This document shows, in pieces, positions 986-55,636 of a stretch of 64,000 bases of DNA. The first letter of the stretch is position 1. Each line of letters starts with the position of its first letter. Source of the DNA: Octopus vulgaris (taxonomy: Eukaryota). The notes below the pieces were generated by a model. The model saw only the letters and a list, made by a program, of their open reading frames with translations. It had not been told where the DNA came from and did no database searches. The DNA lies in assembly GCA_951406725.2 (NCBI GenBank), contig OX597815.1, positions 44,268,001 through 44,332,000 on the forward strand. The letters run 5' to 3'. The translations under genes were made by a program, and so were the position numbers.

Positions 986-1565
986 GGCCTTCTCTTCATT
1001 CTCATCACTTTCCCTCCTTTTTTACCTCACTCTGTCCTTTTCCTTGTTTTCTCTCTTTCTTGTCCCTTCCTAATTCTTCAATCCCTCTACCCCCTACCTC
1101 TCTCCTCTCCTTCCACGTGACCGATGTTCGGCCAAGCCTGATCTTTCTTTCTTTGTTTCACTACCATCCGTGTAGCATCTCTTATATTCCTTCCTATGAT
1201 GCTCATCCTCTATGCTCCTGCCGTAAGGCTTCACTTCCACACAAGCCAGCTTAATTTAATTCGTCCTTAGTCGAAAGACACCTGTTGTTAATGTCCTGTT
1301 GTTTGTATTTGTAATTGTGTACAATTTCACCGTTTATTATTTTTTTTCGTCCTTGTTTTCGTATACATTTGCTAGCTTTCTGCCAAAGAATATAGTGCTC
1401 TTAGCTTAGATTTTCTTGTGGCCTGCTTGATTAGAGCAGTCTCGAGAGTAACCGGCCGAAACTGCAAAGATGGTCTGGTGCTCGACTGAAGAAACTGTAA
1501 AGATGATCTGGTGCTCGACTGAAGATTGAAAGCTCCGAATGATCCGTCCTTGTTTTACCTGTCCT
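985..1565 (+). mobile_element. Penelope-like/retrozyme-like non-coding repeat, family P1
   Basis: Homologous to 54600-54900 (minus), e.g. shared gccagcttaatttaattcgtccttagtcgaaagacacctgttgtt. Also related to 30438-30580 and 33765-33880. Carries a hammerhead-like motif. Penelope-like assignment is inference. Confidence 0.6.
1436..1530 (+). ncRNA. Reverse-order hammerhead-like ribozyme motif (GUC site) with a 33-nt internal duplication
   Basis: GCAGU-C-UCGAG (1436-1446), GAAA-CUGC (1458-1465), CUCGA-CUGAAGA (1481-1492, repeated 1514-1525). Stem II is weak. Confidence 0.6.
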
Positions 1566-1757
1566 TCTAACTCATGATAGATCGCTAGCCACTACACAAT
1601 CTTTATTTTCTCTCCCTGTTTCTTTCTGTGTTCCTTTCTGTGGAAGGGCATAGGCTCGAAACGTTAAAGACTTTTTCACTTAATCTAATACATCTGTTTG
1701 TTGTCTACACCACCCACCACCTGTTTTCGTCTTTTGTTCTTTTTTGTGAATTCTCCT

Positions 1758-1758
<1 letters not shown>
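1566..1758 (+). mobile_element. Penelope-like terminal repeat fragment, family P2
   Basis: Second copy at 29425-29590 (minus). Contains a minimal hammerhead and ends in (TA)n. Confidence 0.65.
1634..1669 (+). ncRNA. Minimal type I hammerhead-like motif (core variant CUGUGGA)
   Basis: CUUU-CUGUGGA-A-GGGC[AUAG]GCUC-GAAACGU-U-AAAG. Palindromic stem III (ACGU), as in Penelope-associated minimal hammerheads. Confidence 0.6.
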
Positions 1759-1816
<58 letters not shown>

Positions 1817-1847
1817 ATATGTATATGTGTATGTATATATATATAAG

Positions 1848-1938
<91 letters not shown>

Positions 1939-2495
1939 TCAGCCTCATAGTGTGTTACCTGCAACTAGTATCTTCTACTTTAACCCCTTGTTGCCCAAAT
2001 GCTTGTGAGTGGATTTACTAGACAGAAACTAAATGAAGTCTGTCGTATATGCATATATCTGTGTGTGTGTGTGTCTAGATCTGTGATTGTATCTTTGAGT
2101 ATGTGCTTGTCCCACTCCCCACCATCTGTTGATCAACGGTGTTATTTAGGCAAATGAGACCTATAGAATAAGTACCAATACTGGCTCGTATTTGTTCGAA
2201 TAAAACGAGCCAAGTAGATGCCCCATCATGGCCATAGTAAGACATAAAACATACGTATGCATGCATGTATGTATGTACGTACGTATGAAATATACGCCCG
2301 CATCGCCCGTCTGTCTCACCAGAGAAAAAAACATAACGTGCGCGCACTCAGCAATCATCAAACGCAACCTGTATTAATCACCCACTGGTTTGTACTCGGT
2401 TCCTATTACAAAACTGTGCAATGATCTACATCCGACAACTAGGTGAGGTCACAGAATATAAAGCCAAAGTGTCTGAGTTCAGGAAAACACACATT

Positions 2496-2579
<84 letters not shown>

Positions 2580-3113
2580 AGGAAAAAATGTGACAATACG
2601 TGCGGTTTAGAAGGCATGAACTGCGACAGCGAAAATCTACAGCAAAGAAAGAAACATTGGAATGCAAATATTGTTTTCAAATTTCAGCACAAGGCCAGTA
2701 AGTTCAGGGCTGTGGGTAAGCCTATTACATCGCTTCCAATGCTTGGTTGGTGCTTATTTTATTGATCCCGAAAGGATGAAAGGCAAAGTTGAGCATACGA
2801 AATGCCGCCAAGCGTTTTTCCCGTCATGCTAACTATTCTGTGTTGGAATGCAAATATTGATGCATGTTTTGCTAACAAATATGGGTGATACCTATGAATA
2901 ATAGTTAGGGAAATAAGCTGACCACATTACCCTACCATACTCCATCTTTCTCTTCAATTCTCTGTCTTTCTGTCTGTCTGTCTCTCTCGCTGTCCCTCTC
3001 TTTCTCTCTCTCACTCCCTTTCTCTCTCTATCTCTCTCCTCTTTCTCTCTCCATCTCTTTCACTTAGACTCACACAAGCGTACAAACATGCACACACACA
3101 CTCTCTCTTTCTC

Positions 3114-3144
<31 letters not shown>

Positions 3145-3153
3145 GACTCACTC

Positions 3154-3207
<54 letters not shown>

Positions 3208-3229
3208 ACTTTAGCTGTCTATGTCTGTC

Positions 3230-3264
<35 letters not shown>

Positions 3265-3487
3265 ATCTATCTATCCCTCCGTTTCTCACTTTCTAACACT
3301 ATCTTTCCTCTAACTTTGTCACGTTTTGTCTGTGCGTAGAGAGAGCGAGGGAAACAGGTAGAGAATGTAGTCCATGCATACGTATATACATACATACAAA
3401 CATACATACATGTATGTTCATACACAGACATATTTATTCTCTCACACGGATATATATATATATATATTTATTTTCTATTTTAAAATA

Positions 3488-3760
3488 GGCGTAAGAGTGG
3501 CTGTGTGGTAAGTAGCTTGCTTACCAACCACATAGTTCGGGGTTCATTCTTACTGCGTGGCACCTTGGGCAAGTGTCTTCTACTATAGCCTCGGGCTGAC
3601 CAAAGCCTTGTGAGTAAATTTGGTAGATGGAAACTGAAATGAAGCCCGTCGTATACATGTATATATCTATGTGTGTGTATATGTTTGTGTGTCCGTGTTT
3701 GTCCCCCCAACATCGCTTGACAACCGATGGTGGTGTGTTTACGTCCCCGAAACTTGCTGG
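3488..3760 (+). mobile_element. tRNA-derived SINE family A, 3'-truncated
   Basis: A/B-box-like head plus CORE-like accttgggcaagt; matches the full copy at 20665. Confidence 0.85.
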
Positions 3761-4124
3761 TGGACAAACAGAGACACACAAACATACAAACATACATACA
3801 CGTATATATATGTATATGTATGTATGTATGTATGTATGTAGGTAGGTAGGTAGGTAGGTAGGTAGGTAGGTAGGTATGTAGGTAAGTAGGTAGGTAGGTA
3901 GGTAGGTGCAAATTTGTATGTTTTATGTATGTATTCTCATGCATATAACTGGATATATAGATATGCTCATATATATTTAAATGACAAACTTCTAGAAAGT
4001 TTTACAGATTTTTACAGTTCCAGTGATGGATTGGATGTGTAGTGTTCGAATTAGCTTTCTCGCGTAAGTATGTATATGTACAGAGTATGTATATGTGGAT
4101 ACGAAACATATTTAGATATACTCT

Positions 4125-4512
4125 CTCTTTTACTAGTTTCAGTCATTTGACTACGGCCATGTTGGAGCACCGCCTTTAGTCGAGCAAATCGACCCCAGGA
4201 CTTATTCTTTGTAAGCCTAGTACTTATTCTATCGGTTTCTTTTGCCGAACCGTTAAGTTTCGTGGACGTAAACACACCACCATCGGTTGTCAAGCGATGG
4301 TGAGGGGACAAACACAGACACACAAACAGACACACACGCACCACATATATATATATACACATATACGATGGGCTTCTTTCAGTTTCCGTCTACCAAATCC
4401 ACTCACAAGGCTTTGGTCGGCCCGAGGCTATAATAGGTGCCACGCAGTGGGACTGAACCCTAAACCATGTGGTTGGTAAGCAAGCTACTTACCACACAGT
4501 CACTCCTTCGCC
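4125..4512 (-). mobile_element. SINE family A, near full length
   Basis: Reverse complement of the 20665-21080 copy. Confidence 0.9.
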
Positions 4513-4906
4513 TTACATTTTCCTATAACACATTCACACCTAAATGTCGGTGCATGTGCTAATCTATGAATAGGTCTAGCCTCATAGAAACATATACACA
4601 TAATGCATACCGTCACAGACACTTAGAGAATAAATGAACTTGTAAGGGCTGTCAATACTACCTGGGTCCATTGTTACACCTACGTATGATGTGTGATTAT
4701 TCACACTTTGGGTGGAGTAAGTTTCAGGTAAATAAAGTGAATAATAAAAAGGAAATGGAAAAGACTTGATTCTAGCTCAAAATGAAGTGAGAAATTTCTA
4801 TCGATGTATGAATGCATCTTCCGTTAATTTTATATATTTTGTTTAGGTGTGTGTTTATATTGTATACACACACACACGCACAAACACACACACGCACACA
4901 CACACA

Positions 4907-4942
<36 letters not shown>

Positions 4943-5081
4943 CATTCAATTATAAATACATACACTCACGCGTACGCGTTTGGTCTTAAAAGCAGGACTG
5001 CATCCATAAAGTTAAATTTATATCATACATATTTATGTATGTGTGTGTGCATGTATGTGTATGTATGTGTATATATGTGTA

Positions 5082-5127
<46 letters not shown>

Positions 5128-5243
5128 TGCACACATACATAAAGGTAAATGATATAAACTTCACTGTGTATATCTATATGTATATATATATACACGCACA
5201 CACATATATATATATATATTTGTATGTGTGTGTGTATGTATGA

Positions 5244-5295
<52 letters not shown>

Positions 5296-5451
5296 GTGTA
5301 TACAAATATACAACAATATATATATATATAAACATATATATGTGTGTGTGTGTACATATATATATGTTTGTATGAATGTGTATATATACATTCATACAAG
5401 CATACATACTTGTATGCATACATACATACCTACATACATACATACATACAT

Positions 5452-5486
<35 letters not shown>

Positions 5487-5911
5487 TACATACATACATA
5501 CATACATACATACATACATACATACATACATACATACATACATACATACATACATACATACATACATACTTGCTTACATTCTCTGTCGGCGACGCCAGTG
5601 TTCTGTAGTATCCCGTGCAAGGTTCCACTAGAAAAGTGAGGACGGACAATGATTTTTTGTGCAAATAACAATATGAGTTTTTCTGTAATAATCTAATTGA
5701 AAGTCATTTCTCACTGTCATTTGATGTTACACTAGAAAAACTGAATGAAACAGGTAAGACGGTTAATGTCTATTATCTGTTACAGCAACACACGCTTTAC
5801 AAAAGCAATTCTGTTTCGGAATTTTTCTTCGACACAAAGGGTGATGTCATCAAAATTCAGATTTTTGTCATGTCATGTATACATGATAATTGTGCCAATA
5901 TTTTCCACTTT

Positions 5912-6247
5912 TACGGATTCCATGGACAGCGAGGCTCACCAATGGAGAAGTTCTTACGCAGATCAGGCAGAAAATGTCGCTAGAATCTAGGATCACCAAG
6001 CATAGGTTGGCATATTTTGTTCATACTATACGGAGAAAATCCCTGGAGAAGGACATCATGCTCGGAATGGTCAGTGGCAAGAGAGGAAGAGGCCAACCAA
6101 GAACCCGTTGGCTTGACACCATCAAGAGTGATACCGGGATGGACATAGCCAATCTGAAAAAATCGGCCCAGGATAGAACTGACTGGAAGACACTGATCCA
6201 TCGAGTAACCGAGAGTCGACTTCGACTGAGCGGATAGATGGAGATGG
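5912..6247 (+). mobile_element. RTE-clade LINE 3' end, 5'-truncated, with 12-bp TSD
   Basis: RIPWTAR..NxEVL..LEKDIMLGMVSGKRGRGQPRTRWLD is an RTE/BovB-like C-terminus, followed by a (GATGGA) tail. TSD attttccacttt at 5900-5911 and 6248-6259. Confidence 0.95.
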
Positions 6248-6644
6248 ATTTTCCACTTTGATTGCCATCAATTCTGTATATATTTCTCGATTCTCTTCCG
6301 CTTAGTTACAATAACGCACACTGCAAAACGATAATCCTTTTGCTTCGGTCTTTTACCATAAAACGAAAGACGCTGTTGTCAATATTCAGCTTTCTTGGCA
6401 TGTCTTCTATGACATGATAATTGTGCCAACATTTTCCAATTTGTTTGCCATGAAATTCTGCAGATAGATTGTATCATAAATTGAAGTCAATAAGTTTTCA
6501 GAAACTGGTCGTTTTGAAGAATATCATGGGAAAAGTGCTTCATGAAATAAGACATTTTTTTTCTGAAACTGACATCGGAAGTCCTAGGAAATCAGCTATA
6601 AATACAAGTGCGAAGTGTAAAGTCAAATATGGTATATAGCACCT

Positions 6645-6717
<73 letters not shown>

Positions 6718-7084
6718 ACTTAGTAAGTACCGTTCCTTTACAAATACAATATTACATTGACATCAAAGACCGATTGCGCACAATGAGATGAGATTCGGGA
6801 TGATCCATCATATATCTATATTTATGCGTGTGAGCGCGCGCGCGTATGTTTGACAACAAGTGTTGATTTGTTTACGTCAACGTAAGTAGCGGTTCAGCAA
6901 AAGGCACCGATAGATTAAGTTCCTGTCTAAAAAGATAAGCACTTATTTCGATTTGTTCCACCAAAACCTTTCAAAGCGGTGTCCCTGCATAGCCGCAGTC
7001 TCGCGACTGAAACAATTGACAGATAAAGATACGTGTGTGCATGTACACATGCATATACGTATGAATGTATATTGTACGTATGTA

Positions 7085-7790
7085 CAAGGGGAAGTCAAAC
7101 GTTACCCACACTTTCACCTTAATATATCTTTATTATTGTCACATTACCTTCAGAGCATGCCTGCTTATAGTTGGTACTATTGTGGTTACGTGATCGAAAT
7201 TTGAGCCTGATCGCTCCCTTTTTCTTTCTGGCTTTACAGTGTAAGCATGGCCACTCCACTAGCAATGTGCACCTAAGAAGAACAAAGAGCAGTATCCGAT
7301 TTCTCTGGTCGGAAGGTGTCAGGTGTTGAAATCCTGTATTTTAGCACAATACAGGGAGAGTGCACTACCGCGTAGATGCCTGTATGAGAGGATAGAGAAG
7401 TTTAAAAGGGGCCGGACAAACGTGACGCACGAAGAGAGAACACGAAGATTCAGCAATAGTGAACCGGCGACTTTTATTATCGATGACGTAGCTCGTTCTC
7501 TACAGATTAGTCATGTTTCTGCCTATTAAATCATCCACGATCAGCTCGGCTTCTATAAAGTTTGTGCAAGACGGGGGGTACCAAGACAGCTTACTGCAGA
7601 TTACAAGCGCAAACATCTAGAGGCCTTCCAACGTTTACTCGATCGCTACAACAATAAGGATGAGGAATTTTTTAGCAGAATAGCCACAGATGAAATGTGA
7701 GACCATCATTATGAGGCAGAATCCAAAAGACAGAGTATGAAGTGTAAACATCCAGGTTTGCTAGCGACAAAGAAATTAATGTCAAAATTG
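7085..7790 (+). mobile_element. Mariner element 5' part with degraded transposase
   Basis: TA-caagggg terminus. MATPLAMCT*EEQRAV/IRFLWSEG N-terminus and VCAR..VPRQLT motif, with stops and frameshifts. Confidence 0.85.
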
Positions 7791-8208
7791 ACTTCTTCCA
7801 GGTTAGGATTATCATGGCTTTCTTGAATAACGTGTTGCTATAGCTGGTCTTCTATTGCATTCCGACTTGTGGATATAGTGTAAAAGAGACCCACGAAATT
7901 CCTTGCCCAGCTCTTCAGAATATCTTCACTGTTACTGATTAAGGTAAATTCATCTTATTCTTTCCAATGTCTATACTCCATAGCAATAAAGTAAAAGTTT
8001 GTTTGATATTTTTGTATTTGTATCTGTGACAATAAGTAGGTGTAGATATAATGGGCACATTTTGCCCCTGCTTCTTGTCTATTAATTCCCAAGTAACATT
8101 TACTTGACAACGCCAAATTGAATAGTATTGCCCAGATGTCAAAGCCATAATGATATCTGTTAGGCAGCTGATGATGAATATATACATTTCTATGCTTGTA
8201 GAATGTGA

Positions 8209-8681
8209 GGCGGCGAGCTGGCAGAATCGTTAGCACGACGGGCGAAATGCTTAGCAGTATTTCGTCTGCCGTTACGTTCTGAGATCAAATTCCGCCGAGG
8301 TTCACTTTGCCTTTCATCCCTTCGGAGGTCGATTAAATAAGTACCAGTTCCGCACTGGGTCGATATAATCGACTTAATCCGATTGTCTGTCCTTGTTTGT
8401 CCCCTCTGTGTTTAGCCCCTTGTGGGCAGTAAAGAAATATATATGGAAGGTGGCGAGCTGGCAGAAACGTTAGCACGCCGGGCGAAATGCTTAGCAGTAT
8501 TTTCGTCTGCCGTTACGTTCTGAGTTCAAATTCCGCCGAGGTCGACTTTGCCTTTCATCCCTTCGAGGGTCGATTAAATAAGTACCAGTTACGCACTGGG
8601 GTCGATAAAATCGACTTAATCCGTTTGTCTGTCCTTGTTTGTCCCCTCTGTGTGTATACCCTCGTGGGCAGTAAAGAAATA
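8209..8681 (+). mobile_element. Head-to-tail dimer of SINE family B (tRNA head plus Meta-like central domain)
   Basis: Two units of about 230 bp (8209-8437, 8448-8681). gcctttcatcc..ggtcgat.aaataagtaccag resembles the MetaSINE domain. One TSD, agaatgtgag, at 8200-8209 and 8682-8691. Confidence 0.9.
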
Positions 8682-8740
8682 AGAATGTGAGATTTTGTAT
8701 ATTGTGCTCTCGTGCTTCTGAATTACCCTTCATTGGAATT

Positions 8741-8924
8741 CTGATCCTCGTAGAGTTAAGGATCTTTAGGATTTCTTGGTTTTCTTGGTTTAAGGTGATT
8801 ACGCCATGTATATTATACCATATATTGAAATTCTGATTCTCGTAGAGTTAAAGATCTTTAAGATTTCTTGGTTTTCTTGGTTTAAGGTGATTACGCCAAG
8901 TATATTATACCATATATTGAAATT
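8741..8924. repeat. 92-bp tandem duplication
   Basis: Units start at 8741 and 8833 and differ by a few substitutions. Confidence 0.9.
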
Positions 8925-9362
8925 GCGTAATTGTCCTTCATCCAGATTCTTATGCTAGCTAAAGGAATGGTTAGGGATTCCTAGATTATGGGCATTCTTT
9001 TGCATATTATACAGGTGCGTCTGCGTGTGTGCATGTGCAAAAATATAAATATACAAATATATTTTTCTTCAGTAACAAACAACCAGTGTTGAATATTATG
9101 GCTAATGACGTCAGCAAGCTTGTCAATATGACAAGTTATTGTGATGAGACTCCAAACTTCAAATTTTGTAGTAGAATTTGGCTTTTTTTTCGTTTTTTTT
9201 TTCTCATCAGTTAAGATGTAGGTTAGTGAGATTCACAAGACAGGGCTTTTTATATTGCATTAACTGCGCAAATATTGGTGGGAATCATGGACCTACAACT
9301 TTTGTTCATTGTCCGTAATTCTTAACAAGCGAGTATTGTTTTCTGAGCTTATGATATTGAAT

Positions 9363-9410
<48 letters not shown>

Positions 9411-9411
9411 G

Positions 9412-9528
<117 letters not shown>

Positions 9529-9639
9529 TACATATATATTTCAGTATATATGCGTAAGTGTGTGTGTGTATATGTGTGTGTGCATGTTATTGCAGTGAGT
9601 TCGAATCCTACTAGGGATGATAACTTTTGTAGGTACAGA

Positions 9640-9791
9640 CATGGCTGTAAGAAGGATGCTTCCCAACCACATCTTTTGGGGTTCAGTCTTAGTGCGTGGC
9701 ACCTTGGGAAAATATTTTCGACTTATAGCCCTTGGCCGATAAAAGTCTTGAGAGAGGATTTGGCAGCGGAAACTGGAAGAAGCCAGTCGTA

Positions 9792-9849
<58 letters not shown>

Positions 9850-10190
9850 TGTCTGTCTGTCTGTCTGGTGTTTGTCAGTGTCTGTGTGTGTGTGTATGTG
9901 TGTGTGTCTTTCAGTCTGTATGTTTGTCTGTCTATCTGTGTTTGCTTTTGTTCCCCAGCACCGCTTGACAAGCGGTATTGGTTTGTTTACATCTCCGTGA
10001 ATTAGCGTTTCGACAAAAGATTTCGATTGAATAAGTAGCATGATTAAAAACTAAGGACTGGAGTCTATACACTCGACTATCCTCTTCAAGGCGGTGCACC
10101 AGCATGGCCGCTGTCCAAACACTGGAAGAAGATAATAAAGTGGTGCCCCAGCATGACCACTATCAATTGACTAAAACAAGTAAAAGATAA
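9640..10190 (+). mobile_element. Older SINE family A with duplicated tail
   Basis: Diverged match to family A; tail motif ggtgc.ccagcatg occurs at 10090 and 10140. Confidence 0.8.
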
Positions 10191-10217
10191 AAGATATATA
10201 TATATCATGTTTTTTAT

Positions 10218-10257
<40 letters not shown>

Positions 10258-10273
10258 TAACGGGCTTCCTTCA

Positions 10274-10391
10274 CACTAGCCTAGCTAGAGTGTGTGCCGC
10301 TCTGAACCCGACAGAAACACATATTGCCTTCAGCAGATCCAAAAGTGCCGCCCGGCGCAGACTGCCCCCACTCCACCTAGCTACGCTAGTG
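10274..10391. mobile_element. 118-bp MITE (hAT-like) inserted in a minus-strand SINE A
   Basis: TIRs cactagcctagctag / ctagctacgctagtg. Degenerate 8-bp TSD ttccttca / atctttta (SINE consensus ttctttca). Confidence 0.7.
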
Positions 10392-10583
10392 ATCTTTTAG
10401 TTATCGTCTACCAAATCCACTCGCAAGGTTTTGGTCGGCCCGAGGATGTATGGGGAAGAAATTTGCTGAATGTGCCATGTTATGGGACTGAACCAGTAAC
10501 CATGTGGTTGGGAAACAAATCTCTTACCCCACTGCCACGACTGCATAAAAATATATTCAAATAATTAAAAATAGTTGAGATAT

Positions 10584-10969
10584 GGATGGAAGCACTCCGT
10601 CGGTTACGACGATGAGGGTTCCGGTTGATCCGATCAACGGAACAGCCTGCTCGTGAAATTAACGTGTAAGTGGCTGAGCACTCCACAGACACGTGTACCC
10701 TTAACGTAGTTCTCGGGGATATTCAGCGTGACACAGAGAGTGACAAGGCCGGCCCTTTGAAATACAGGTACAACAGAAACAGGAAGTAAGAGTGAGAGAA
10801 AGTTGTGGTGAAAAGTACAGCAGGGTTCACCACCATCCCCTGCTGGAGCCTCGTGGAGCTTTAGGTGTTTTCGCTCAATAAACACTCACAACGCCCGGTC
10901 TGGGAATCGAAACCGCGATCCTATGACCGCGAGTCTGCTGCCCTAACCACTGGGTCATTGCGCCTCCAC
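10584..10969 (-). mobile_element. SINE family C (tRNA-Arg-like head, OR-type), tail type 1
   Basis: Head homologous to 31364 and 38095. Degenerate TSD agttgagatat / agttaaggtat. Confidence 0.85.
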
Positions 10970-11219
10970 AGTTAAGGTATACCAATATGTATAAACGTAT
11001 GTATATGTGTATGCATGTGTGTGTGCGTACGCGCGTGTATAAAAGTGTTTATATAACACAATATGCTTAGAAAACAATACCCACTTGTTAAGAAATCACG
11101 GACAATGAACAGAAGCTGCGGGTCCATGATTCCCACCAATATTTGCGCACTTAATACAAAATAAAAGGCCCAGCCCTACATTCTGGTCGTAGTTCAAGAC
11201 AATGAATGTGACTCTAACA

Positions 11220-11505
11220 CAGTGGTTCCTAAAGTAGGCGGTACTGCCCCGCTAGGGGCGGTGGAAAGATCCAGAGGGGCGCTGAAGAGAAGTGGAGGCG
11301 ATAATGGGATGGCGAAAAGGAGGCGAAGAATGTAAAAACAACAAAATAATGGGTTAATTAGGTTAAGTTTTATTTGTGAAATCCAGTTGTTTGAATTTGC
11401 TGCAGAAAGTGGTCTATGTTTGTGGTGGTGAGTGGGATGGGAGGTTTTAAGAATGCGGCTTGGGTGCTAAGAGGGTAGCAACACGAATATGTTTGGGAAC
11501 CACTT
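11220..11505. mobile_element. hAT (Charlie-like) MITE
   Basis: TIRs cagtggttcctaaa / tttgggaaccact. Perfect 8-bp TSD ctctaaca at 11212-11219 and 11506-11513. Confidence 0.9.
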
Positions 11506-11889
11506 CTCTAACAGGACATTGGCTAGGTATTTTTTATTCTTTCTTCTGACCATTATGCAGAGGTGTCACAAGATATTAATAAAACTTTTGAGGAGTAATA
11601 TCTATCTATCTATCTTCCTATCTACTTATCTATCAATCTATCGATCTGAGTTCGTGTCTATTTATCAATCAGTCTATCTTTCTTGATATAAGTCATTGCA
11701 CTGCGGACACTCAAGTGCATACATAGACTTTCGAAGTTTAGTAGAGTATATAGACCGCTGTACATATTAATACATACACGCGCGCGCGCCCACACACACA
11801 CACATCATTTCATGAAGGCTAAGTACACCAAAACATCGAAATTACTGCCAACATTCTTCTTGTAAAAGAATTATATATATATATATATC

Positions 11890-12580
11890 GTTGAAGGTGA
11901 AAGTCGATATATATAAGTCTGTGTTTTGACATCATTGCTTTATGGTGCTGAATCTTGGACCCTGTATCGAAAGCACATCAATCAGCTTGACATTTTTCAT
12001 ATGCGATACTTGCGTACTCTCTCCATTATAAAACCGAGTGACCATATTCGTAACAGTGAGGTGCTAACAAAATGCAACATATCAAGTATTGACGCCATCC
12101 TCATCAAAATACAGCTTAGATGGTCAGGTCATATCATTTCTAACGTATGAGTGATACCAGAATTCCGAAGTTACTTCTCTTTGGCTAATTCCCAATAGGA
12201 AGGTCAGTTTGAAGATCACTCTTGCGCTTCAAAGATTAAAAAAAAAGACAATATGAAGCGATGCAAATTTCCCTTTTCTTTCTGGGACAACAAAGTATCA
12301 GTATGCAAAACCTGGCACCAGTCCTGCTACTCCTTAGTTCAAAGATTTGAGCAAAGTTGAATCCAGCATTGGGACCAACTTCGTGCAAGCATGGAAGCAC
12401 GCTGGCCAAACGCTCATTATGGTTTCGTGGCACGAAGCAAAGCAGGCCTTGCGTCCACTCAAGAAAACATACCGTAAATGATCCACAAGAACTCGAGTAA
12501 ACTGAGTCCTCAGCTTGTTCACTTTGCCAAAAGACTTTCAAGGCATCAGCAGGCCTCAAGAGATACATTCGTCTCCACAG
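11890..12580 (+). mobile_element. Degraded RTE LINE 3' region
   Basis: LLYGAESWTLYRKHINQLDIFHMRYLR..IRNSEVL..QLRWSGH..DTRIPK motifs, with stops and frameshifts. Confidence 0.9.
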
Positions 12581-12671
12581 AACATGATTACCCCTTTATA
12601 TTACTGAACCCTCATTTGTCGTTTACTACGAGAGAATCCATCATATGTATGATGCATGCATGCATGTGTGC

Positions 12672-12702
<31 letters not shown>

Positions 12703-12714
12703 TGTATGTATGGA

Positions 12715-13907
12715 CGAGGTTAGGCTGAAAAGTTCATAGGCTGACTATGAAGGAGTGATCTAGAGCTGTGAAATCTTGCATGTGTTATTTTCAACTTTTC
12801 TTATTGATAACTGCATTGTTTCTTTCCATATAAAATGATAGTTGACTGCTCAAAGACCACTATAAAAGTAACTAGTAGCAAACTTCTTTTCAAAATGGAC
12901 AAAATTCGTCATGGTGTTGTAATGAAGTATCTGCAGTAAAAGGCTTTAGACCCCAACGGCATTCATGCTGACACCGTCGATATAATAGGAGATGACGCTC
13001 CAGCTTTAGCTACAGGCAGCTGAATTTAGGAGGGAATGGAGAGTGTTGGAAATGACACAAGGTTGACGTCCTACAACTGTACCACCTAGGAAAACATTGA
13101 TTGTGTTCACCACATGCTGGTAGATGACAGGCGATTGAGTATAAATCAAATAGCTAATGTCATTAGCATATTCCGTGAGAGAATTGAGCACATTCTGCTC
13201 AATGACCTTGGCATGACGAAGGTTTCTGCTTGGTGGGAGCCACTTCTTTTGAGACCTGATGAAAAGCGCGCCAAGTTGAGCACATCACAGGAAAATATGA
13301 CATTGTTTGAGACAGATGAAGCCGGTTTCCTTGAACGTCTCTAAGCCAGGGTGAGTGTTGGAATCATCAGCTGGAGCCCGGGACAAAGAGACACTCCATG
13401 AAGTAGAAACATCCCTCCTCCCCAGCTCCAAAGAATGCCAACGTTGTTTCATCTGCAAGGAAATGATAGCTTCAGTTTTGGGGTATACAAAAGACATTGG
13501 GTTTATTGACTTTCTTCAAAAGGGCCATACCGTCACTGGAGAGTACTATGCCAACTTGCCAAGGCAGTTACGAAGAGCTATCATGACCAAACTCTAGGAA
13601 AACTGACGAAGGGTTTCTTGTTTCATCAGGCAATGTTCCAGCACATAAGTCCTCCGTTTCAATGACTGCTGTGCGTGATGTGACTTTGAACTGGTTGATC
13701 GCCCTCCTTTTTCCTCTGAACATGAAAAAGCTTTTGCTGGGAACCAATATCGCAGTCATTATCATGTCATGTCTGCTGTTGTTATCCAAATACTGTAACA
13801 CCCATGGAAGGAGCGTGTAGGCTGCAAGGGGGACTATGTTGAAATATAAACCTCATTCGGTCTCATTCTACGACAGTATCCTGGTAAACCTATAAACTCG
13901 ACCCTCG
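12715..13907 (+). mobile_element. Near full-length dead mariner element
   Basis: Ends cgaggttaggctgaaaagttcatagg and cctataaact..accctcg. Transposase from ATG 12895 with DRRLSINQIA, KVSAWWEP, DFLQKGHTVTGEYYANL and FHQ.N.PAH motifs. Confidence 0.92.
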
Positions 13908-13927
13908 TGTGCGTATGTGTGTGTGCA

Positions 13928-14033
<106 letters not shown>

Positions 14034-14852
14034 GTGTATATATATACACACATTGGGGTAACTGAATGGTAAGAAATGTGCTTCTCAACCACATCGTATT
14101 GGGTTTAGTCTCACCGCGTGGCACCTTCGGCAACTGTCATCTACTTTAGCCCCTAGCCGACTAAAGCCTTGTCAGTGGATTTGGTAAATAGAAACTGAAA
14201 ACGCCGTCGTATATATACATTTATCAAGTAATGGAACGCAACACACTCCGCATTTGTACTAACAAGTTTTTTATATACCAGTGAGATTCTCTCTTCCCCC
14301 ACTCTCTCTCACACACACACACACTTGCCTTCATTCTTTCTCCTTTCCTTTCTCTCACTTTTATTCTAGCCTTTCTACTTATTCCTTTTCTCTCTCTCCC
14401 TCTTGTATTTCTTGCCTTTCTCCTTCCCCTTCATCCCTTTCTTTTTTTTGCTCTGTTGCTGCTTTTTCTTACTCTCTTTCTTCTCTGCCTGGTGCTGTCA
14501 CTTGACCAGCAGCCGGTTCCCCTTTTTCTACCTTTCTGGCACTGGTTCCGTAGCTGACCAGTCGTAATTCACTGTTTCTCTGTCCTCCATCCTTCAAGAC
14601 ATTTTCTAAGCGTTACCCACTATTCTCGTCTCCTTGGCCCCAAGGCCGTATTTTATTCATACTTGTCCACCGTCCTACAATCACTGTGTGTCGTTTTGTT
14701 TGTTTGTTTTGTTTGCTCTTGTCCTTAATTCTCCTAACTTAGCATCTTGGCGAATGGGACTAATAGAGTAAGTATCAGGTTTTACAAAAGAAAAAAAAAC
14801 AAACAAATACTGAGGTCAAATCATTCAAATAAAATCCTTCAATGCAGTGCCC

Positions 14853-15574
14853 GGGTCTAGTTGGTTTGGCTGCCAGCATTTGAGAAATTAAAGTTTATCG
14901 AAAATTTTAAAATTTGACACATTAATATATTTTTCTAAGCTGAATTGCTGGAGTTATAAAGGTTTAAAGTTTAATCATTTCACCCAGTCTGTAAATAGGA
15001 TTTAGAGTCTGTCATTTTGTGCGTGATTGCATGTGTTGCAACATTCTGAAAATAGCACGTTTTTATATGAAACTGTAAACAAATCAAATTCTGCTTAACG
15101 TATGGCATGTAACCTCTCATAACTTTTTTAAATTTTGGAATTTTAAGAAAATTTTTGTGAATTTGTACTCTACACGCGGGAATTCATACGATTATGCAAG
15201 AAAAATTTTTAATGGAGAGCGGGGCGTGATTTGAGGCCTATTTAGCTGTTATTTTTAGCATATCTCACGACCAGGATACAAGCAACAGAGCACAGCGTCA
15301 ATGTACGTGGCATCGCGTAGAATATGTGCTTTCTCGCAGACAAAAGAATTCTCATGTTTGGCTTGTTAGAAATGGAAACAGTCATGAATGTATCTGTGGC
15401 TTACGATTGGCTAAAATTTCCCAAAATTTTCAAAACTTAATTGCTACTATCTCTATTGATTTATAACGAAAATGATTTTCACGTCATTCATTAGCCTATA
15501 AAAGTGTATCATTACACTGAATATAAAATCAGTTCGAACAGAAAATGATGCTAGCAACCAAACCAATTAGATCC
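14853..15574. mobile_element. 722-bp non-autonomous DNA transposon with GG termini and 8-bp TSD (possibly Merlin), inserted in a SINE A tail
   Basis: TIRs gggtctagttggtttggctgccagcat / atgctagcaaccaaaccaattagatcc. TSD cagtgccc at 14845-14852 and 15575-15582. Confidence 0.85.
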
Positions 15575-15625
15575 CAGTGCCCCAGCTTGGCCGCCATCAA
15601 ATGACTGAAACATAAAAGTTTAACG

Positions 15626-15656
<31 letters not shown>

Positions 15657-16143
15657 TACACATTTACAGACACTCATGCATACATATATCACAAACACAC
15701 ACACACGTACACACAATAGTACAGAATATATCTAATATTGTAACGATAAATATAAAAACAAAATCGAGCACGTGGTTGTAGTAAATCAGCATCAGAGGAT
15801 AGTAGTCATGTGAAATGATATATTTCAATAGCAGAATAAAGGCGGGAAAGTATTCGTAGTATGTAAAGTATCAGTTAAAGTGTCAAGCCTAGTAATAAGG
15901 AGTATAATACATGGCTATAAACTGTTGTACATGTCACTATATGATGAAGGCCAGTGACTGCTGTAGCATGTAGCCTTAAATCTCATGCTGGCTTATACAT
16001 GCTTCTCTGTATGTGTATTTGCGCATGTGTGTATATACACACATACATACACACACACCCACACACACATACATATATATATATATGTGTGTGTGTGTGT
16101 GTTTATAGGTAGATAGATACATACGTACACATATGTATGTGTC

Positions 16144-16184
<41 letters not shown>

Positions 16185-16367
16185 GTATATATATTTATAT
16201 TATGTATATATAGTCATACACACACACACACACACACACAAACACATGTACATACACACATGGTCAAATCGAAGAAAACTTTAAGGTAGCTATCCGTCTA
16301 TATATCTATCCAACTGCCTGTCTATCATCTCTCTCTCTCTCTCTATGTATGCATATGTATGTATATA

Positions 16368-16415
<48 letters not shown>

Positions 16416-16449
16416 AAATTACTCCAAATTATATAGATAGATAGATAGT

Positions 16450-16655
16450 CTGTATCTGTGTTTGTCCACCTGCCATCGTTTGATAACCGATGGTGGTGTG
16501 TTTACGTCCCCGTAACTTAGCGGTTCGGCAAAAGACACCGATAGAATAAGTACTAGGCTTACAAAGAATAAGTCCTGGGGTCGATTTGCTCGACTTAAAG
16601 CGGTGCTCCAGCATGGCCGCAGTCAAATGACTGAAACAAGTAAAAGATTAAAAAT
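16450..16655 (+). mobile_element. SINE family A, 3' half
   Basis: Near identical to 20880-21075. Confidence 0.9.
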
Positions 16656-16832
16656 AGAGTATATATATATATATATACACATACACATACACACACATAC
16701 ACACACACACACTCACATACATTCACAGATGTGTGTGTGTATGTGATGGAATATCCCGTTTGAATACAATGTATGAGCTGTTCAGCTTTTGCTAAAGGGT
16801 CTGTATGTAAGTATATATGTATGTATAATCAT

Positions 16833-16879
<47 letters not shown>

Positions 16880-17778
16880 GGCAAAATTAATAGAGGTCAC
16901 AATAATGACAGATGGTACTGACTAGCACCGTTTTCGCTAAAAATAAGAGGTATATGTGTGTGTGTGTGCGTGTGTGTGTGTATGTCTGTGTGTCTGTGTA
17001 TGTGTCTCTGTGTGTATACATAGATGTATGACGTATGTATTTATGTATGAGCATGTATTTGTGTTAGTCCTTATCACATCGCATGACAACTGGTGTTTGC
17101 TTTCTTTACGGCCCCGTAACGTAACGGTTCGACAAATACGATCGACAACACAACTACCACGATCGATTTGTTCGACTAAACGGCTTCAAGGCCACAGTCC
17201 AACGACTGAGACAAGCAGAAAATGAAGCTCGCATCGTCGATACCGACGTTGATCCGCTTCTCATTCTCTCTCTCTCTTTCTCTCTCTGTTTTCTCGTTTT
17301 TTATAAAGATAACCCAATTATTTTACATGCTTTGAAGATGACAGCACACATGGACATGTTCTATCTACGTTTATCTCTGTTTTGCTTATTTTTCTTTATT
17401 TGGTTATACTACTCTTGTCTTTATTCTTTTTTATTCTAGTTCACTTGGTGAGCAATCGTCTATTGAAATTGTATTTTACAAAAGACGCACACAAAAAGTG
17501 AAAAGAAATATAAAAAAACCAGTCGAGGGCTATTGAAGTTGTAATGGGCGGACCTGGCCGAAAACGGTACTGTCTCTCTCTCTCACACAAACATGCACAC
17601 ATACAGAGATTCGTACACACACACAGAGGTACATACACAAACGTATACACATAGAGAGACACATACACACGCATACGAGTATAACAACAGAGAGAGTGTA
17701 TCAAAAAGACAAAAAGAAAAACAACCATATAGACAGACAAAAAGAGAAATAGAAAGACGGATGTAAAAGGATTGAGAC

Positions 17779-17809
<31 letters not shown>

Positions 17810-17843
17810 ACTATTGAGTGAAGGAGAAACGGGGAGGAAAGGA

Positions 17844-17926
17844 AAGTGAATTTATGTAAATGTGAAAGCAGAAATTCCCACACCTATAATAAATTTTCGC
17901 GGCAAAATTCGGTGGACGACCACGTG
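17844..17926. promoter_or_regulatory. Candidate cis-regulatory module, copy 1 (PAR-bZIP/D-box-like, E2F-like, E-box)
   Basis: AAGTGAAT-TTATGTAA (17844-17859), TTTTCGCGGCAAAA (17894-17907), CACGTG (17921-17926). Same motif order at 21404-21474. Confidence 0.35.
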
Positions 17927-18033
17927 CTTTCTGCTTATATTTTGTTTTTATTTCGGTTGTGGAAAAAAACATTTTATATTTAACTATCTTTTCATAGAGA
18001 TAATTAAATATATGAGGTGGGGTGCTCTCTCTT

Positions 18034-18140
<107 letters not shown>

Positions 18141-18427
18141 ATAGAAAGAGAGACAGAGAGATATGTATATGTATATATATATTTTTTATGATTCAATCAT
18201 TTGTCAGCAGCAATGATGGAGCACAGCCTTCAACGGTTTTAATCGAAGGGATCGACCCTAGGAAACCCAATACGTATTCTATCGTATCCTGTTGTCGAAC
18301 AGCTAGGTTACGGGTCATAAACGCACCAACATTGGTTGTCAAGCGATGGTGCGGGGATAACACAGACACGATGACACACACACACACACACACATACATG
18401 TATGTATGTATGTATGTATGTATGTAT

Positions 18428-18850
18428 GTTAGTTAGTTAGTTAGTTAATTTTTTGGCTCAAAAAGCAAAAAGCAAGGCCATGTAGGGGGACATGGAGTTA
18501 TGTACAGGGTGGTGTTCATGTAAAGAGTTCAGGCCACTTGAGGTCAAAGGAGACTTTGAACCGAGCGGTCGTCGGCATCTTCACCATCTCGTCTGGCAGC
18601 TTATTCCACGGATCCGCAACCCACACGGAGAAAGCCCCTCTCCTTCGATTGAGATGAAATCGTCGCAGATAGAGCTTTTCGGAATGACCCCGCAGCCGAC
18701 GCTCTGTAGCAGGAGTGAAGAACAGCTCTTTCGAGAGGTTACACATTCCGCTTATGATGTTGTGAGCAAGAATGAGATCTCCACGGCGTCGTCGTTTTTC
18801 TAGAGAATAAAGGTCGAGCGTCTTCAGCCTTTCTTCATAAGACAAATTCT
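18428..18850 (-). mobile_element. CR1 LINE 3' end with (AACT)n tail
   Basis: [42 protein letters not shown] is the classic CR1 ORF2 C-terminus; short 3' UTR and tetranucleotide tail. Confidence 0.95.
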
Positions 18851-19064
18851 TATGTATGTATGTATGTATGTATGTATGTATGTATGTATGTATGTATGTA
18901 TGTATGTATGTGTGTGTGTATGTATGTATGTATGTATGTATGTATGTATGTATGTATGTGTGTGTGTATGTATGTATGTATGTATGTATGTATGTATATG
19001 TATATATATATATGTATGTATATATATATTATATATATAATATAATTAATATATATATGCATAT

Positions 19065-19139
<75 letters not shown>

Positions 19140-19144
19140 CATAT

Positions 19145-19780
19145 AAAAGTAAATAAATGGCACAACGAAGCACCGATATTTACTGGAAAATAGCGAACGT
19201 AATAAATACGACGCTAATGTATAGCTTCACTGCGTATGTACTAGTAAAGATGCGTGTGTGCAACAAACATGAAAAAAATTGTCTTACCTCTAGGAAGAAC
19301 ATCTGAAAAATGAAAAACCTAGAAACGGATAATGCAGTAAACAGTAAACGGCATGAAATACGAAAACAAATCAGTTGAATACACAAACAACGAGAGAAAC
19401 AAATGGAAAACAGGACAAGTAACATAAAGAACGACCCTTCATCACTTGTCAGTTGTCTTTCTACTCCTCATTTCGAGCATCGAACGACAACATGAGTCTT
19501 CGAAGGCAGTTGCTCCAGCAAATACCAAAATAAAACTTGGGATTTATGGAGGGTCAAAGTTGGGAACAAAAACGACTCTCCACGTTTATTTTCGTTCGGT
19601 TTCCTTGTATGTCTCCACTGTCCTGTTTTTGTTCCCAACATTGACCTTCCATAAATCCCAAATTTTATTTTGGTATTTGTGGGAGCAACTGCCTTCGAAG
19701 ACTCATATTGTCGTTCGATGCTCGAAATGAGGAGTAGAAAGCCACTGATAACTGATGAAGGGTAATTTTTTATGTTACTT
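19145..19780. mobile_element. Penelope-like repeat with inverted terminal duplication
   Basis: Inverted arms of about 157 bp at 19417-19573 and 19625-19780, each carrying a hammerhead-like motif. Confidence 0.7.
19702..19764 (+). ncRNA. Reverse-order hammerhead-like ribozyme motif (AUA site), intact core
   Basis: CUCAU-A-UUGUCG / UGCUC-GAAA-UGAG / UGAUAA-CUGAUGA-A-GGGUA. All three helices pair (5, 6 and 5 bp including G-U). Confidence 0.7.
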
Positions 19781-19899: not shown

Positions 19900-20370
19900 T
19901 TTGAACGAGCGTATTAAACAGCTGCAAGGGTTTTGTGGCTATGATGACCATCCAGTATTATTATGTGCTGTTCTGCTTGTGACAGTTTCGCTATGGCAGT
20001 GAAGTGTCTCACCCATTTTAGGAAGCTTTCTTCGTCAGTCCAGCTGCTTTTAGTGAAATGACTAGTTGCCCCAGCTGGTGCGTTATTCATAAGAGCATCT
20101 ACCATACGTTTCCTAGGAAATATGAACATCAGAGGTGTGTAAGCTCCAGCGGCATTTGTAGTACATATGACAGTTACTGTCTTTCCTTTTTTTCGACTGG
20201 TCATTTTACCTTTGGTGGTAATATTTGCAGGCTTCTGAGCATTGGATACTCCTGTCTCGTTCATGTTCCAGACTTGCATAGGACCATAGTGGTTGCTGCT
20301 TAGCACGCAATTGGAGGCATCGAAAAACTTCTCAACTTGATGTTTGTTAAATCCAGCTGCCCTGGAGTTG
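19900..20370 (-). mobile_element. pogo/Tigger-type (DDE_1, CENP-B-like) transposase fragment
   Basis: RAAGFNK..V..FF, VWNMNETG, TVTVICTTNAAG..P.MFIFPRKR, F.KW..HF and IILDGHHSH motifs. Confidence 0.9.
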
Positions 20371-20664
20371 ATGTGATCGATTCATCACCTAGCATTATTA
20401 AATGGCATTTGGAGACAACGAACATGCAGAATCGTTATCATACCGGACAAAATGCTTAGCGACATTTCTTCGGACTTTTCATCCTGTATTCAAAAGCTGC
20501 TGAGTTTGGCATTGACTTTCAATCTTTCAGGGTTGACAAAATACGTAATAGTTGAACACTGGGTTCGATGTAACCGATTCATCCCCTATCCCAAAATTGC
20601 TGCCCTTGTGGCAAAATTTTACACCATTATTATTAGTATTATTATATTTTAAAAATAAATATAT

Positions 20665-23155: not shown

Positions 23156-23684
23156 TAAGTTCCTTTGCTTCGTCAGAAGAATGCGTATGAAATAGATAAT
23201 CAATGCGGTTGTTGCTTAGTCCCTTCTCAGCAGAAAAAAATATTAGTAGTCATATGAAGGTATCTATCTATTCTACATGTGTCCTTTATTTAATGTAAGA
23301 TATTAGAGCAGTGGCTTTCAGACTAGCAAATACCAAACCCAACCCTAACTAAACATTAAAGAACTTTCTGAGCTCCTCCTATACATTGGTGTCAAATTTT
23401 GGCAAAAGCCAGCAAGTTCGGGGCAAGGGGTAAATCTATTGCCTCGATCCCCAGAGCTCAATTTGATCAACCCCGAAAGGATGAAAAACAAAATCGACCT
23501 TGACGGAATTTGAATTCAGAATGTAAAGACAGACGAAATGCAACTAAGCATTTTGTCTGACGTGTTTGCCCCACTTATATATTAATATTAAGGATGAAAA
23601 AGAGAGAAAAAGAAACAGATTTTCATCGATATAATTCTTCTTACGTTACTGTGGAGTTAGATATGCTAAAAAAGTTTTAAACCG

Positions 23685-23808
23685 GGAATATTCCTTGTAT
23701 TGTTTGTCTTGTACTCTGTTTTTTCGTTGTTAAAAAAAGTCCGTTTCCTAGTTTGTTTTTATGTTTTCGTTTCTCGTTGTGTTCTACATTTAATTGTGGT
23801 GTCCTGTA

Positions 23809-23863
<55 letters not shown>

Positions 23864-24161: not shown

Positions 24162-24651
24162 TCCTCATCTCTCTCACTGCTGAATCGACTACCAACTTCC
24201 TTTCGTTCGCAGCTTTCTACAAGTCAACAACGACTTTTTCTTGCGCTCCGAATTTTTCCGTCGTCTAGGCTTAAAAAAAGCCCTCAATGTTGGTTTCATT
24301 GTCCTGTTTTTATTCTTTATGCGTACTGTATTTTAATTTGTATTGCTTTTACGTCCTGTTCTTGTCACATTTTTTTCTTTCCATTTTTTTCTTTCCTTGT
24401 TTTACCCCTCTGCAGAAGAATTTTATTTAATTATTTTGCAGGAAGGATTGGTACGACAGATCGTGTTCTGTCCTTACCTTCGAAACACGCATTGAGTCGA
24501 ACCAGGGACAGCTGATGAAGGGGAATATTTCTTGTATTGTTTGTCTTGTACTCTGTTTTTTCGTTGTTAAAATAAGTCCGTTTCCTAGTTTGTTTTTATA
24601 TTTTCGTTTCTCGTTGTGTTCTACGTTTAATTGGGGTGTCCTGTACTCATA

Positions 24652-30437: not shown

Positions 30438-30440
<3 letters not shown>

Positions 30441-30578
30441 AGATTAATCAGCCGAAATTACTACGATGATCCGGTTCTTGACTGAAGACTGAGGGCTTCG
30501 AATGTCCTGTCTGTGTTTGTTGTATCGTCTTCCTAGTTTTTATGCGTTCTTGTCTCAGTTTGTATTTTTCTACATATC

Positions 30579-30629: not shown

Positions 30630-30692
30630 ATAAAACGGTAAGATAACAAAAGAAAGAAAGAGACCTCAATATTATGTAAATAGAGGAAATTT

Positions 30693-30942
30693 ATCTATAC
30701 AATATGTTACATTACTCGGTAGTCAAGATAAAACTCTGAGTTTCAGATGCCGAAGTGGAAATCCACAACCATTCTCTTCGGTTATCTGGCTATTTGAAAA
30801 CGTTATGAAAAAAAGGGTATTTTTTTCATAACGTTTTCAAATACCCAGATAACCGAAGAGATGGTGTTGTGGATTTCCACTTCGGCATCTGAAACTCAGA
30901 GTTTTATCTTGACTACCGAGTAATGTAACATATTGTATAGAT
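30693..30942. repeat. Near-perfect 250-bp palindrome with a 5-nt loop
   Basis: Arms 30693-30814 and 30820-30942; loop gggta. Confidence 0.92.
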
Positions 30943-30963
30943 ATATATATATATATATATATA

Positions 30964-33320: not shown

Positions 33321-33881
33321 CAAACACATATATACAAATATGCATATATACATATATATGTGTATGTATGTATTCATATGCACTCACACACACACATGGA
33401 ATGAGGAATAAATAAATAAATATATAAATAATTCAATAAATAAATAAATAAATGTATAAATAAATAAGAAAGAACTGAGAGATAGACACACAGAAATGAC
33501 CGAATGGCGGGCAGAGATATGTTAGGAAACAACACCTGCAAAGAGCTGCGTGCTCGAGAAGCATGAACCGTGAGAGCCACTACACGGTCCCCAAGGTTAC
33601 TGATGACTCATAAGTTTACAAACGCATGAAGACACAAGCATTGACACACCTATCTCAGAGTATGTGTGTGCGTGTCTGAGAGAGAGAGAGAGAAAGAGAC
33701 TCTGTGTGTGTGTGTGTGTGTGTGTATACGTGTGTTGGGGGTGTATATATATATATATATATATTAAGGTATGTAGAAAAATACAACATGGACAAGAACG
33801 TATAACTCTTAGAAGACGATACAATAAACACGGACAGGACATTCGAAACCCTCAGTCTTCAGTCAAGAACCGGATCGTGTG

Positions 33882-54599: not shown

Positions 54600-54950
54600 A
54601 ATGGGACAAGAACGCAAAACATCCAGGCAGTTAGGTGATACAAAAAAGGGACAACAAAACATCCAGATAGACGATACAAAGAAAACAAGGACAGGTCATT
54701 CGGAGTTTCTTTCCTCAGTCGAGTTCCATCTGTGCAATGTCAGCTGGTTATACTCGAGATTGCTCCAATCTGGCCAGCCCCAAGGAAAAACGGAGAAAGT
54801 TACACAAATACAAATAACAGGACATAACAACAGGTGTCTTTCGACTAAGGACGAATTAAATTAAGCTGGCGTGTGTGGAAGTAAAGCTTAGATGTTGCAC
54901 GGACAGTGGCCGAATCATGAAGGAAAGGTCAGAGAATGAACAAGCAAAAC
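54600..54950 (-). mobile_element. Family P1 repeat with a degenerate reverse-order hammerhead (54700-54763)
   Basis: GCAAU-C-UCGAGU / GACA-UUGC / ACUCGA-CUGAGGA; homologous to 1200-1565. Confidence 0.65.
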
Positions 54951-55099
54951 ATAATAGTATTTTAAAGTCTTTTACAGCTTGTTTCTAGAATAGGTAAGTA
55001 TGTGGATCTTATACTATTGAGTAAATATTTCCTTGTCGGCTAGGTATTCCGTCATCGAAGAGATAAAAATAAAGAATATCCTTAATCCAGTATATTATT

Positions 55100-55450
55100 A
55101 GTTAGGAGTTTGTTGAAATATTAAAGAATTGAGGAATGTTTAAAGGAAAAGATGATATCGATTGGAAGATCTATGATCAAAAGATTCAAGAGAAACATAG
55201 TAAAAGATAGCAGATCCATTGCTGAAGTATCACAGAAAATCCGTGGAAAAAGGTGATAGAAGCTGCTAGTTCTATCGCTGAAAATAAAGAGAAGTGGATG
55301 TGAATGGAAAGCCTTCAGATAGTATGTGATAATATGAAGGAGAGGTATAGTAGTAAATCCAATAGGGTAGATGTTCTGAAAGACGGTACTAATAACTTCT
55401 GTCATCTCTTTTACCACATATTTTCTGTAATACTTCAAATACTGTATCTG
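55100..55450 (-). mobile_element. Very old LINE 3' fragment (CR1/Jockey-like)
   Basis: SHP..RT..FPR..DL..FK motif spacing only. Confidence 0.35.
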
Positions 55451-55636
55451 CTAACCGACACTATCAAAGGGAAAAAGAGAGAGAGAGAGAGGTGAAAGCA
55501 AAACAAGCTTAGTATAGATAACACAGAGTAGTGCTCAAATTCTTATACACGATTTTTTATAAATTTTTATAAATTGTATTTTGTGCTCCATGAAAATATG
55601 CCTCAAGCCAAACTATATTTATCTACCTTACTACCA

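Follow-up and report, generated by a model that had tools for sequence, protein, structure and literature searches.

We identify, in a stretch of 64,000 nucleotides of the Octopus vulgaris genome (contig OX597815.1, positions 44,268,001 to 44,332,000; hereafter the window), a repeat-borne motif that is best read as a split-core hammerhead ribozyme, partly decayed here, whose strands run from stem II through helix IV, the cut site, GAAA and helix IV again to CUGAnGA. It likely sits at one end of a Penelope-like retroelement, probably a Naiad. This reading is drawn from the sequence, and we put its probability at about 0.7. The proposed fold itself is very probably correct, and intact members are predicted, with good likelihood, to self-cleave.

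The copy that we describe in most detail begins its cut-site block at position 1436 (copy 1436; all coordinates refer to the window). Read directly from the sequence, the GUC site (1439–1441) is followed by GAAA at 1458 and CUGAAGA at 1486, and the core letters CUGAnGA, GAAA and NUH are all present. Block S (1436–1446, + strand; GCAG-U-C/UCGAG, the slash marking the predicted cut after C1441), located by sequence and by an order scan, comprises a stem III strand, the GUC triplet and a stem I strand. Block G (1452–1465, +) contains the 3′ strand of stem II (1452–1457), GAAA (1458–1461) and the other stem III strand (CUGC, 1462–1465). Block C (1481–1492, +; CUCGA-CUGAAGA) is truncated: it has the second stem I strand and CUGAAGA and, by pair counts, no stem II strand behind them. 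Stem III (including A15.1-U16.1) and stem I are each paired at 5/5 positions, all Watson-Crick. An initial annotation of this DNA had proposed a reverse-order hammerhead with perfect 5-bp stems I and III around a GUC triplet, and we find both the stems and the three blocks (1436–1446, 1458–1465, 1481–1492) as described. The cut that it predicted after position 1441 holds as well, and the order is that of a named type, SGC, with validated examples in the accessible part of PMC10085705.

Stem II is different. The annotation had placed a weak stem II behind CUGAAGA, at the price of a 2-nt insertion, but in this copy neither CUGAAGA is followed by such a strand: at five of six offsets no first pair can form, and the sixth offers a single G-C with mismatches thereafter. 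That placement is a misreading: the partner strand lies upstream of where the annotation began, at 1420–1425 (+; G10.1 is 1420), before the cut site and split off from CUGAAGA. It pairs with 1457–1452, directly beside GAAA, at five of six positions, with a U-C mismatch at 1424, and the stem is opened by the G10.1-C11.1 pair. A downstream stem II at offsets of 0–2 nt in copy 1436 was among the candidates tried, and was rejected on pair counts.

A fourth helix joins the outer parts of the motif. Its 5′ strand (1426–1433) and the G-A at 1434–1435 of a kink-turn-like loop make up the segment 1426–1435 (+), assigned by pairing with 1471–1478; the facing segment (1466–1478, +), assigned by pair count, carries a 3-nt bulge (1466–1468), G-A (1469–1470) and the 3′ strand (1471–1478). 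Helix IV has 7 of 8 possible pairs, three of them G-U, and its junction with stem III consists of the bulge plus tandem GA pairs. Positions 1434–1435 and 1466–1470 fit the kink-turn consensus (two helices separated by a 3-nt bulge with tandem G-A/A-G). The bulge letters vary, yet its length of 3 nt ahead of GA recurs in two relatives (54718 and 30438) and three contig pieces. The upstream stem II partner and the fourth helix together give a topology that differs from the published SGC. As to defects, the core of copy 1436 is intact, one stem II pair and one helix IV pair are broken, and others are weakened. Nested folding favours an alternative structure that joins the 3′ strand of stem II to the helix IV strand, the program being unable to draw pseudoknots. 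Judged from its letters, catalytic activity of this particular copy is possible but doubtful. One run that we presume, by guess, to be RNA has almost no cover over 1428–1465, which is no evidence on expression.

Copy 1436 also contains a tandem array (1458–1525, period 33, 94% matches), whose second unit (1491–1523, +) supplies a spare arm of helix IV, stem I and CUGAAGA. The annotation had seen in this duplication a second GAAA/CUGAAGA pair. The 33-nt unit and its second CUGAAGA arm are real; the second GAAA (1491–1494) is unusable, since part of it belongs to the first core and no strand for a stem II precedes it. The duplication sits behind the first core, the spacing of which stays unchanged, and the extra arm would compete with the original. 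It is probably incidental.

Scanning the window for the S-G-C order yields three distinct sites, at 1441, 19707 and 24467. As the annotation had stated, their linkers are alike (16, 16 and 14 nt from cut to GAAA, and 24, 24 and 26 nt from GAAA to CUGA, respectively), and their helix sequences are unrelated: BLAST gives no match of copy 1436 to 19707 or 24467. The only BLAST relatives of copy 1436 are at 54718, 30438 and 33862. The first (54712–54779, −) belongs to the same family; its GAAA has decayed to GACA and part of helix IV is lost, yet its upstream stem II has six pairs. Stems II and III each show one compensatory pair swap; in stem II, at 54779, U-A replaces the C-G of copy 1436. The second (30438–30488, +) directly follows (TA)n, its start coinciding with the predicted cut site, and shows two compensatory changes in stem I. 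The third (33856–33876, −), detected by BLAST, ends inside a helix IV strand. The host repeat of copy 1436 spans approximately 1217–1570 (+), with loose ends at 1217 and 1556 and the edge of another element at 1573; it is homologous to 54887–54682 (−) and has many related copies in the genome.

Copy 19707 (19683–19758, +) represents a second family with an intact core and an upstream stem II of 5/5 Watson-Crick pairs. Instead of a k-turn it has a symmetric loop without a hinge bulge, and its helix IV is weak (5/6 pairs, then purine mismatches). Its inverted partner, copy 19476 (19439–19515, −), has two core changes and again an upstream stem II with 5/5 Watson-Crick pairs. The two motifs stand back to back in an inverted repeat (19417–19780, 364 nt, 83%) that resembles the 5′ inversions of Penelope-like insertions; no such inverted arrangement is seen for copy 1436. 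A third family is represented by copy 24467 (24442–24518, +), the best preserved of the window, with stem II 5/5, stem III 5/5, stem I 6/6 and helix IV 8/9; its k-turn elements are imperfect, and those of 19707 absent. A separate segment, 23684–23813, repeats the tail of this 24467 element at 96% and begins just behind its CUGAUGA. Every helix differs in sequence between the families of the window yet remains paired. Pairs were counted by coordinates because MAFFT misaligned the unrelated families.

How surprising is this arrangement? With stems I and III included and at equal stringency, the S-G-C order occurs at 3 sites in the window and at 0 in 40 dinucleotide shuffles; at a looser setting, the shuffle mean is 0.025. 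When up to two core changes are allowed, stem II reaches 4 or more Watson-Crick pairs with an upstream partner at five sites and with a downstream partner at none, against means of 0.07 (upstream) and 0.03 (downstream) in 30 shuffles, the upstream offset window of −20 to −24 having been picked after the copies were seen. For the three unrelated families, shuffling the 40 nt upstream gives p-values of 0.016, 0.004 and 0.011 on Watson-Crick pairs; with G-U allowed, the same test weakens to 0.24, 0.08, 0.02 and 0.02. A further control came from a scan of metagenome and prokaryote contigs for the S+G pattern, which gave 239 loci, 236 with full flanks. Among these 236 chance matches, 13 have at least 4 upstream pairs and 0 have 5, and the stem I plus CUGAnGA arm is absent from all. 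Nested folds of the five full motifs are uninformative (z from −1.5 to +0.5). Four of the five predicted 3′ products are closed by a stem-I-like helix; a conserved product hairpin was considered and set aside, the z-scores of −1.9 to +0.5 being too weak as support. Among the 150 of 377 Rfam matches listed there is no hammerhead, nearly all being microsatellite-driven miRNA matches. To our knowledge, Rfam holds no model of this strand order.

The letters of related contigs, compared in four runs with 40 of 105 difference rows listed, pointed to the same upstream partner strand through positions 1424, 1427 and 1428. In run X1, among the rows listed, the majority letter at 1424 is G (1176 of a depth of 1669.5), and the majority letters at 1427 and 1428 account for 94% of the depth and would form Watson-Crick pairs with their helix IV partners. 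In the rows listed, these letters mend two pairs that are broken in copy 1436 (at 1424 and 1428), and at 1427 they replace the G-U by C-G. Up to 91 contigs per run bear the majority letters at 1419–1454.

The same layout can be recognized by eye in published Naiad elements. In the accessible part of PMC8557442, Naiads are reported without canonical hammerheads, a lack taken there as a hint that hammerheads may be no more than parasites of Penelope-like elements; some Naiads, including those of Octopus vulgaris and Euprymna, are flagged as “HHR_core” or “HHR_half_core,” and that part of the paper proposes no fold for the “HHR_core” elements. We parsed by eye the last 330–600 nt or more of 53 of the 54 consensus sequences in File S5 of PMC8557442. 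By this inspection, the split layout is present in 10/53 ends from four phyla, with unrelated helix sequences: Beroe, Clytia-3, three Acropora, Morbakka-2, Pomphorhynchus, two Octopus and Euprymna. One Acropora end is decayed, as is stem II in Euprymna, and stem I of Beroe is just 2 bp. Their upstream stem II is 4–6 bp long, mostly 6/6, their helix IV 5–16 bp, and the hinge is asymmetric or branched in all ten. Behind CUGAnGA there is no usable partner (at most 2 pairs, in Octopus). The two Octopus ends have the −20 offset of copy 1436 and a 3-nt bulge with tandem GA, while non-cephalopod Naiads have plain bulges or junctions instead of a kink-turn.

The same inspection by eye finds intact, textbook type CSG at the 3′ ends of six nematode Naiads (Naiad-1, -2, -3_Nbra, Hcon, Hpol and Asuum), with the same helix IV and the ring opened elsewhere. 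The ends of two spider elements, Naiad_Ptep and Naiad_Smim, read by eye, show the S-G-C order with a stem II of 3 pairs or unclear; they have a long local hairpin ahead of GAAA, and a helix closes block C. In the stretches viewed by eye, the other 35/53 ends show nothing clear of the split, CSG or SGC kind. Some Naiads (Movir-1, Chem-4, Mgal, Bpla, Mphi, Scon and Mmer) have twister-like letters near the 3′ end, and another set (Chem-1, Chem-2, CGi, Sglo, Olur, Tgra, Pmar, Skow and Pfla) shares a different conserved structured motif. The latter motif is reminiscent of twister-sister, and Naiads may swap ribozyme classes.

How does the split form relate to known hammerheads? According to the accessible text of Eckert 2023 (PMC10085705), type SGC has the S-G-C order and demonstrated cleavage and is found only in metatranscriptomes, while type CSG is known as two metagenome sequences. 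CUGAnGA with its stem I and stem II strands is assumed there to be an unbreakable block C, which leaves six possible orders, and the descriptors given demand stem II directly behind CUGAUGA(U)G. The window motif shares with Eckert's SGC the block order and an extra helix that joins the outer strands of stems I and II; with their ends joined, the split form, CSG and SGC have the same strand ring and differ in the point of opening. The window motif differs in being opened between A9 and G10.1, inside block C, in having both strands link helix IV to stem III via the hinge, and in being an animal genomic repeat rather than an environmental sequence. In types I–III, SGC, CSG and GCS the stem II strand lies 0–2 nt behind A9; in copy 1436 it does not, so this copy fits none of the six described orders. 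The minimal type I hammerheads of Penelope-like elements (PLEs) and retrozymes also have their core at the end of a Penelope-like repeat and a loose 9/10.1 junction, but they have the C-G-S order, a tiny palindromic stem III and no pseudoknot (accessible part of PMC4209133), whereas the window motif runs in the opposite cyclic order, with a full-length stem III and one further helix, the fourth.

We lean towards regarding the split form as a seventh natural hammerhead topology, with a four-strand core, no A9-G10.1 link and a hinged fourth helix, and as one of three openings (split-C, CSG and SGC) of a single Naiad-borne, non-circularly permuted ribozyme present in ctenophores, cnidarians, acanthocephalans, molluscs, nematodes and spiders. 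The literature searched, which mostly excludes subscription journals, holds no earlier account of block C being split or of Naiads with permuted hammerheads. In their accessible parts, a 2026 preprint on animal retrozymes searched type I only (bioRxiv 10.64898/2026.07.22.740005), and PMC13725137 cites hammerhead variants with extra helices. If the proposal is true, Naiads are not without ribozymes, non-circularly permuted RNAs would have their largest known reservoir in animal genomes, and such permutations would shift from a few hundred environmental RNAs to animal genomes. It would stand against two printed premises, namely that the CUGAnGA-stem II block cannot be split (PMC10085705, accessible text) and that Naiads spread without hammerheads (PMC8557442, likewise). 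If Naiads hide ribozymes, self-cleavage looks like a general need of Penelope-like elements. The three openings would form a series of permutation intermediates inside one element clade and expose a blind spot of descriptor searches.

It is tempting to picture how such a molecule might work. Stem III and helix IV would make up a single arm with a bend at an asymmetric internal loop (k-turn-like in copy 1436); the loop of this arm would pair with the 5′ flank as stem II and with the 3′ flank as stem I. Helix IV would clamp stems I and II at their outer ends, like the extra helix in Eckert's SGC RNAs, and so take the place of the usual loop-loop contact, and A9 would stack on G10.1 with no backbone link between them. 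Known precedents for loosening this region stop short of a full break: the 9/10.1 junction takes one extra base in PLE hammerheads (PMC4209133, in part), and engineered hammerheads cut with helix II shrunk or absent (PMC544870, in part). Cleavage after C1441 would part the partner strands of stem II, stem III and helix IV from the catalytic strands; as the 5′ product would take these partners with it, religation would be unlikely. A core whose product strands separate on cutting might be of use in RNA switches. For the element, self-cleavage would trim read-through or tandem transcripts and so provide a defined RNA end for retrotransposition. One of three truncated copies (30438) starts at the cut site, the junction being blurred by (TA)n.

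The main mechanistic rival is a strand-swapped dimer with the same helices, in which one pLTR copy would offer its flanks to the loop of another, in the manner of minimal PLE hammerheads. [quoted passage not shown] Most families, however, have the asymmetric III/IV hinge that a monomer needs (k-turn-like, with bulges of 4–7 nt, or with an extra junction), and stem III is 4–11 bp and non-palindromic; we consider the dimer unlikely. The chance arrangement of short motifs might be thought of as well, the motifs being short and some parses made by eye, but the shuffle and chance-locus controls already refute it, and its probability is negligible.

Two other explanations retain the motif and change its meaning. 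If it were an ordinary type SGC, stem II would come from the bases behind CUGAnGA, and the upstream pairing would be inhibitory or due to chance. A G-U-rich stem II of 4–5 pairs behind CUGAUGA-A can indeed be drawn at 19707, 19476 and 24467 (after one extra A, five pairs at 19707, three of them Watson-Crick, and four at 24467, two of them Watson-Crick), and the two spider Naiad ends resemble an intact SGC with a short stem II. The same drawing is impossible at 1436 and 54718 and in the ends of Acropora, Morbakka, Clytia, Beroe, Pomphorhynchus and Euprymna, and 0/5 window sites reach at least 4 Watson-Crick pairs downstream; we hold this explanation to be highly improbable. We find it hardly easier to believe that the motif is a non-catalytic structure keeping hammerhead letters, such as a site to which a k-turn protein or the reverse transcriptase of the element binds. 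The unlinked A9/G10.1 may break the core, many PLE hammerheads cut poorly in vitro (PMC4209133, accessible part) and most copies of the window are decayed; on the other side, the core letters, NUH and G10.1-C11.1 are kept over four phyla while the helix sequences turn over.

The host element is, somewhat more likely than not, a Naiad. The 3′ end of the Octopus Naiad consensus matches the window copies in motif and spacing, and their (TA)n tails and inverted pair are as described for Naiads (PMC8557442, in part). In 5/7 copies the element's own tail runs to (TA)n within 99–306 nt, the window itself being rich in TA repeats. The window copies are short and decayed, and the Naiad ORF (N-terminal GIY-YIG, C-terminal RT) is not detected beside them or elsewhere in the window: neither 104 translated stretches nor an HMMER library search gave a match to RT or GIY-YIG, with 101/249 filtered ORFs scanned. 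The link of these copies to Naiads is therefore by shared motif only, and they may be non-autonomous Naiad relatives.

The window is microsatellite-rich (approximately 37% GC), its SINE sequences appear cephalopod-like, and transposase fragments occur among the translated stretches scanned: DDE_1, Transposase_1 and weak FLYWCH fragments at 19917–20381 (−), 13355–13594 (+) and 51250–51480 (−) are remnants of DNA transposons. Upstream of copy 54718, a decayed coding-like stretch (54950–55480) has no match in Pfam or the library. Another long inverted repeat, at 30689–30946, is 96% perfect. A minimal type I hammerhead of the PLE kind is present at 1634–1669 (+), with a homolog near 29534 (−), both having U for A6. 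It sits in a separate and far more abundant repeat that starts at about 1573, where two different hammerhead-bearing elements adjoin.
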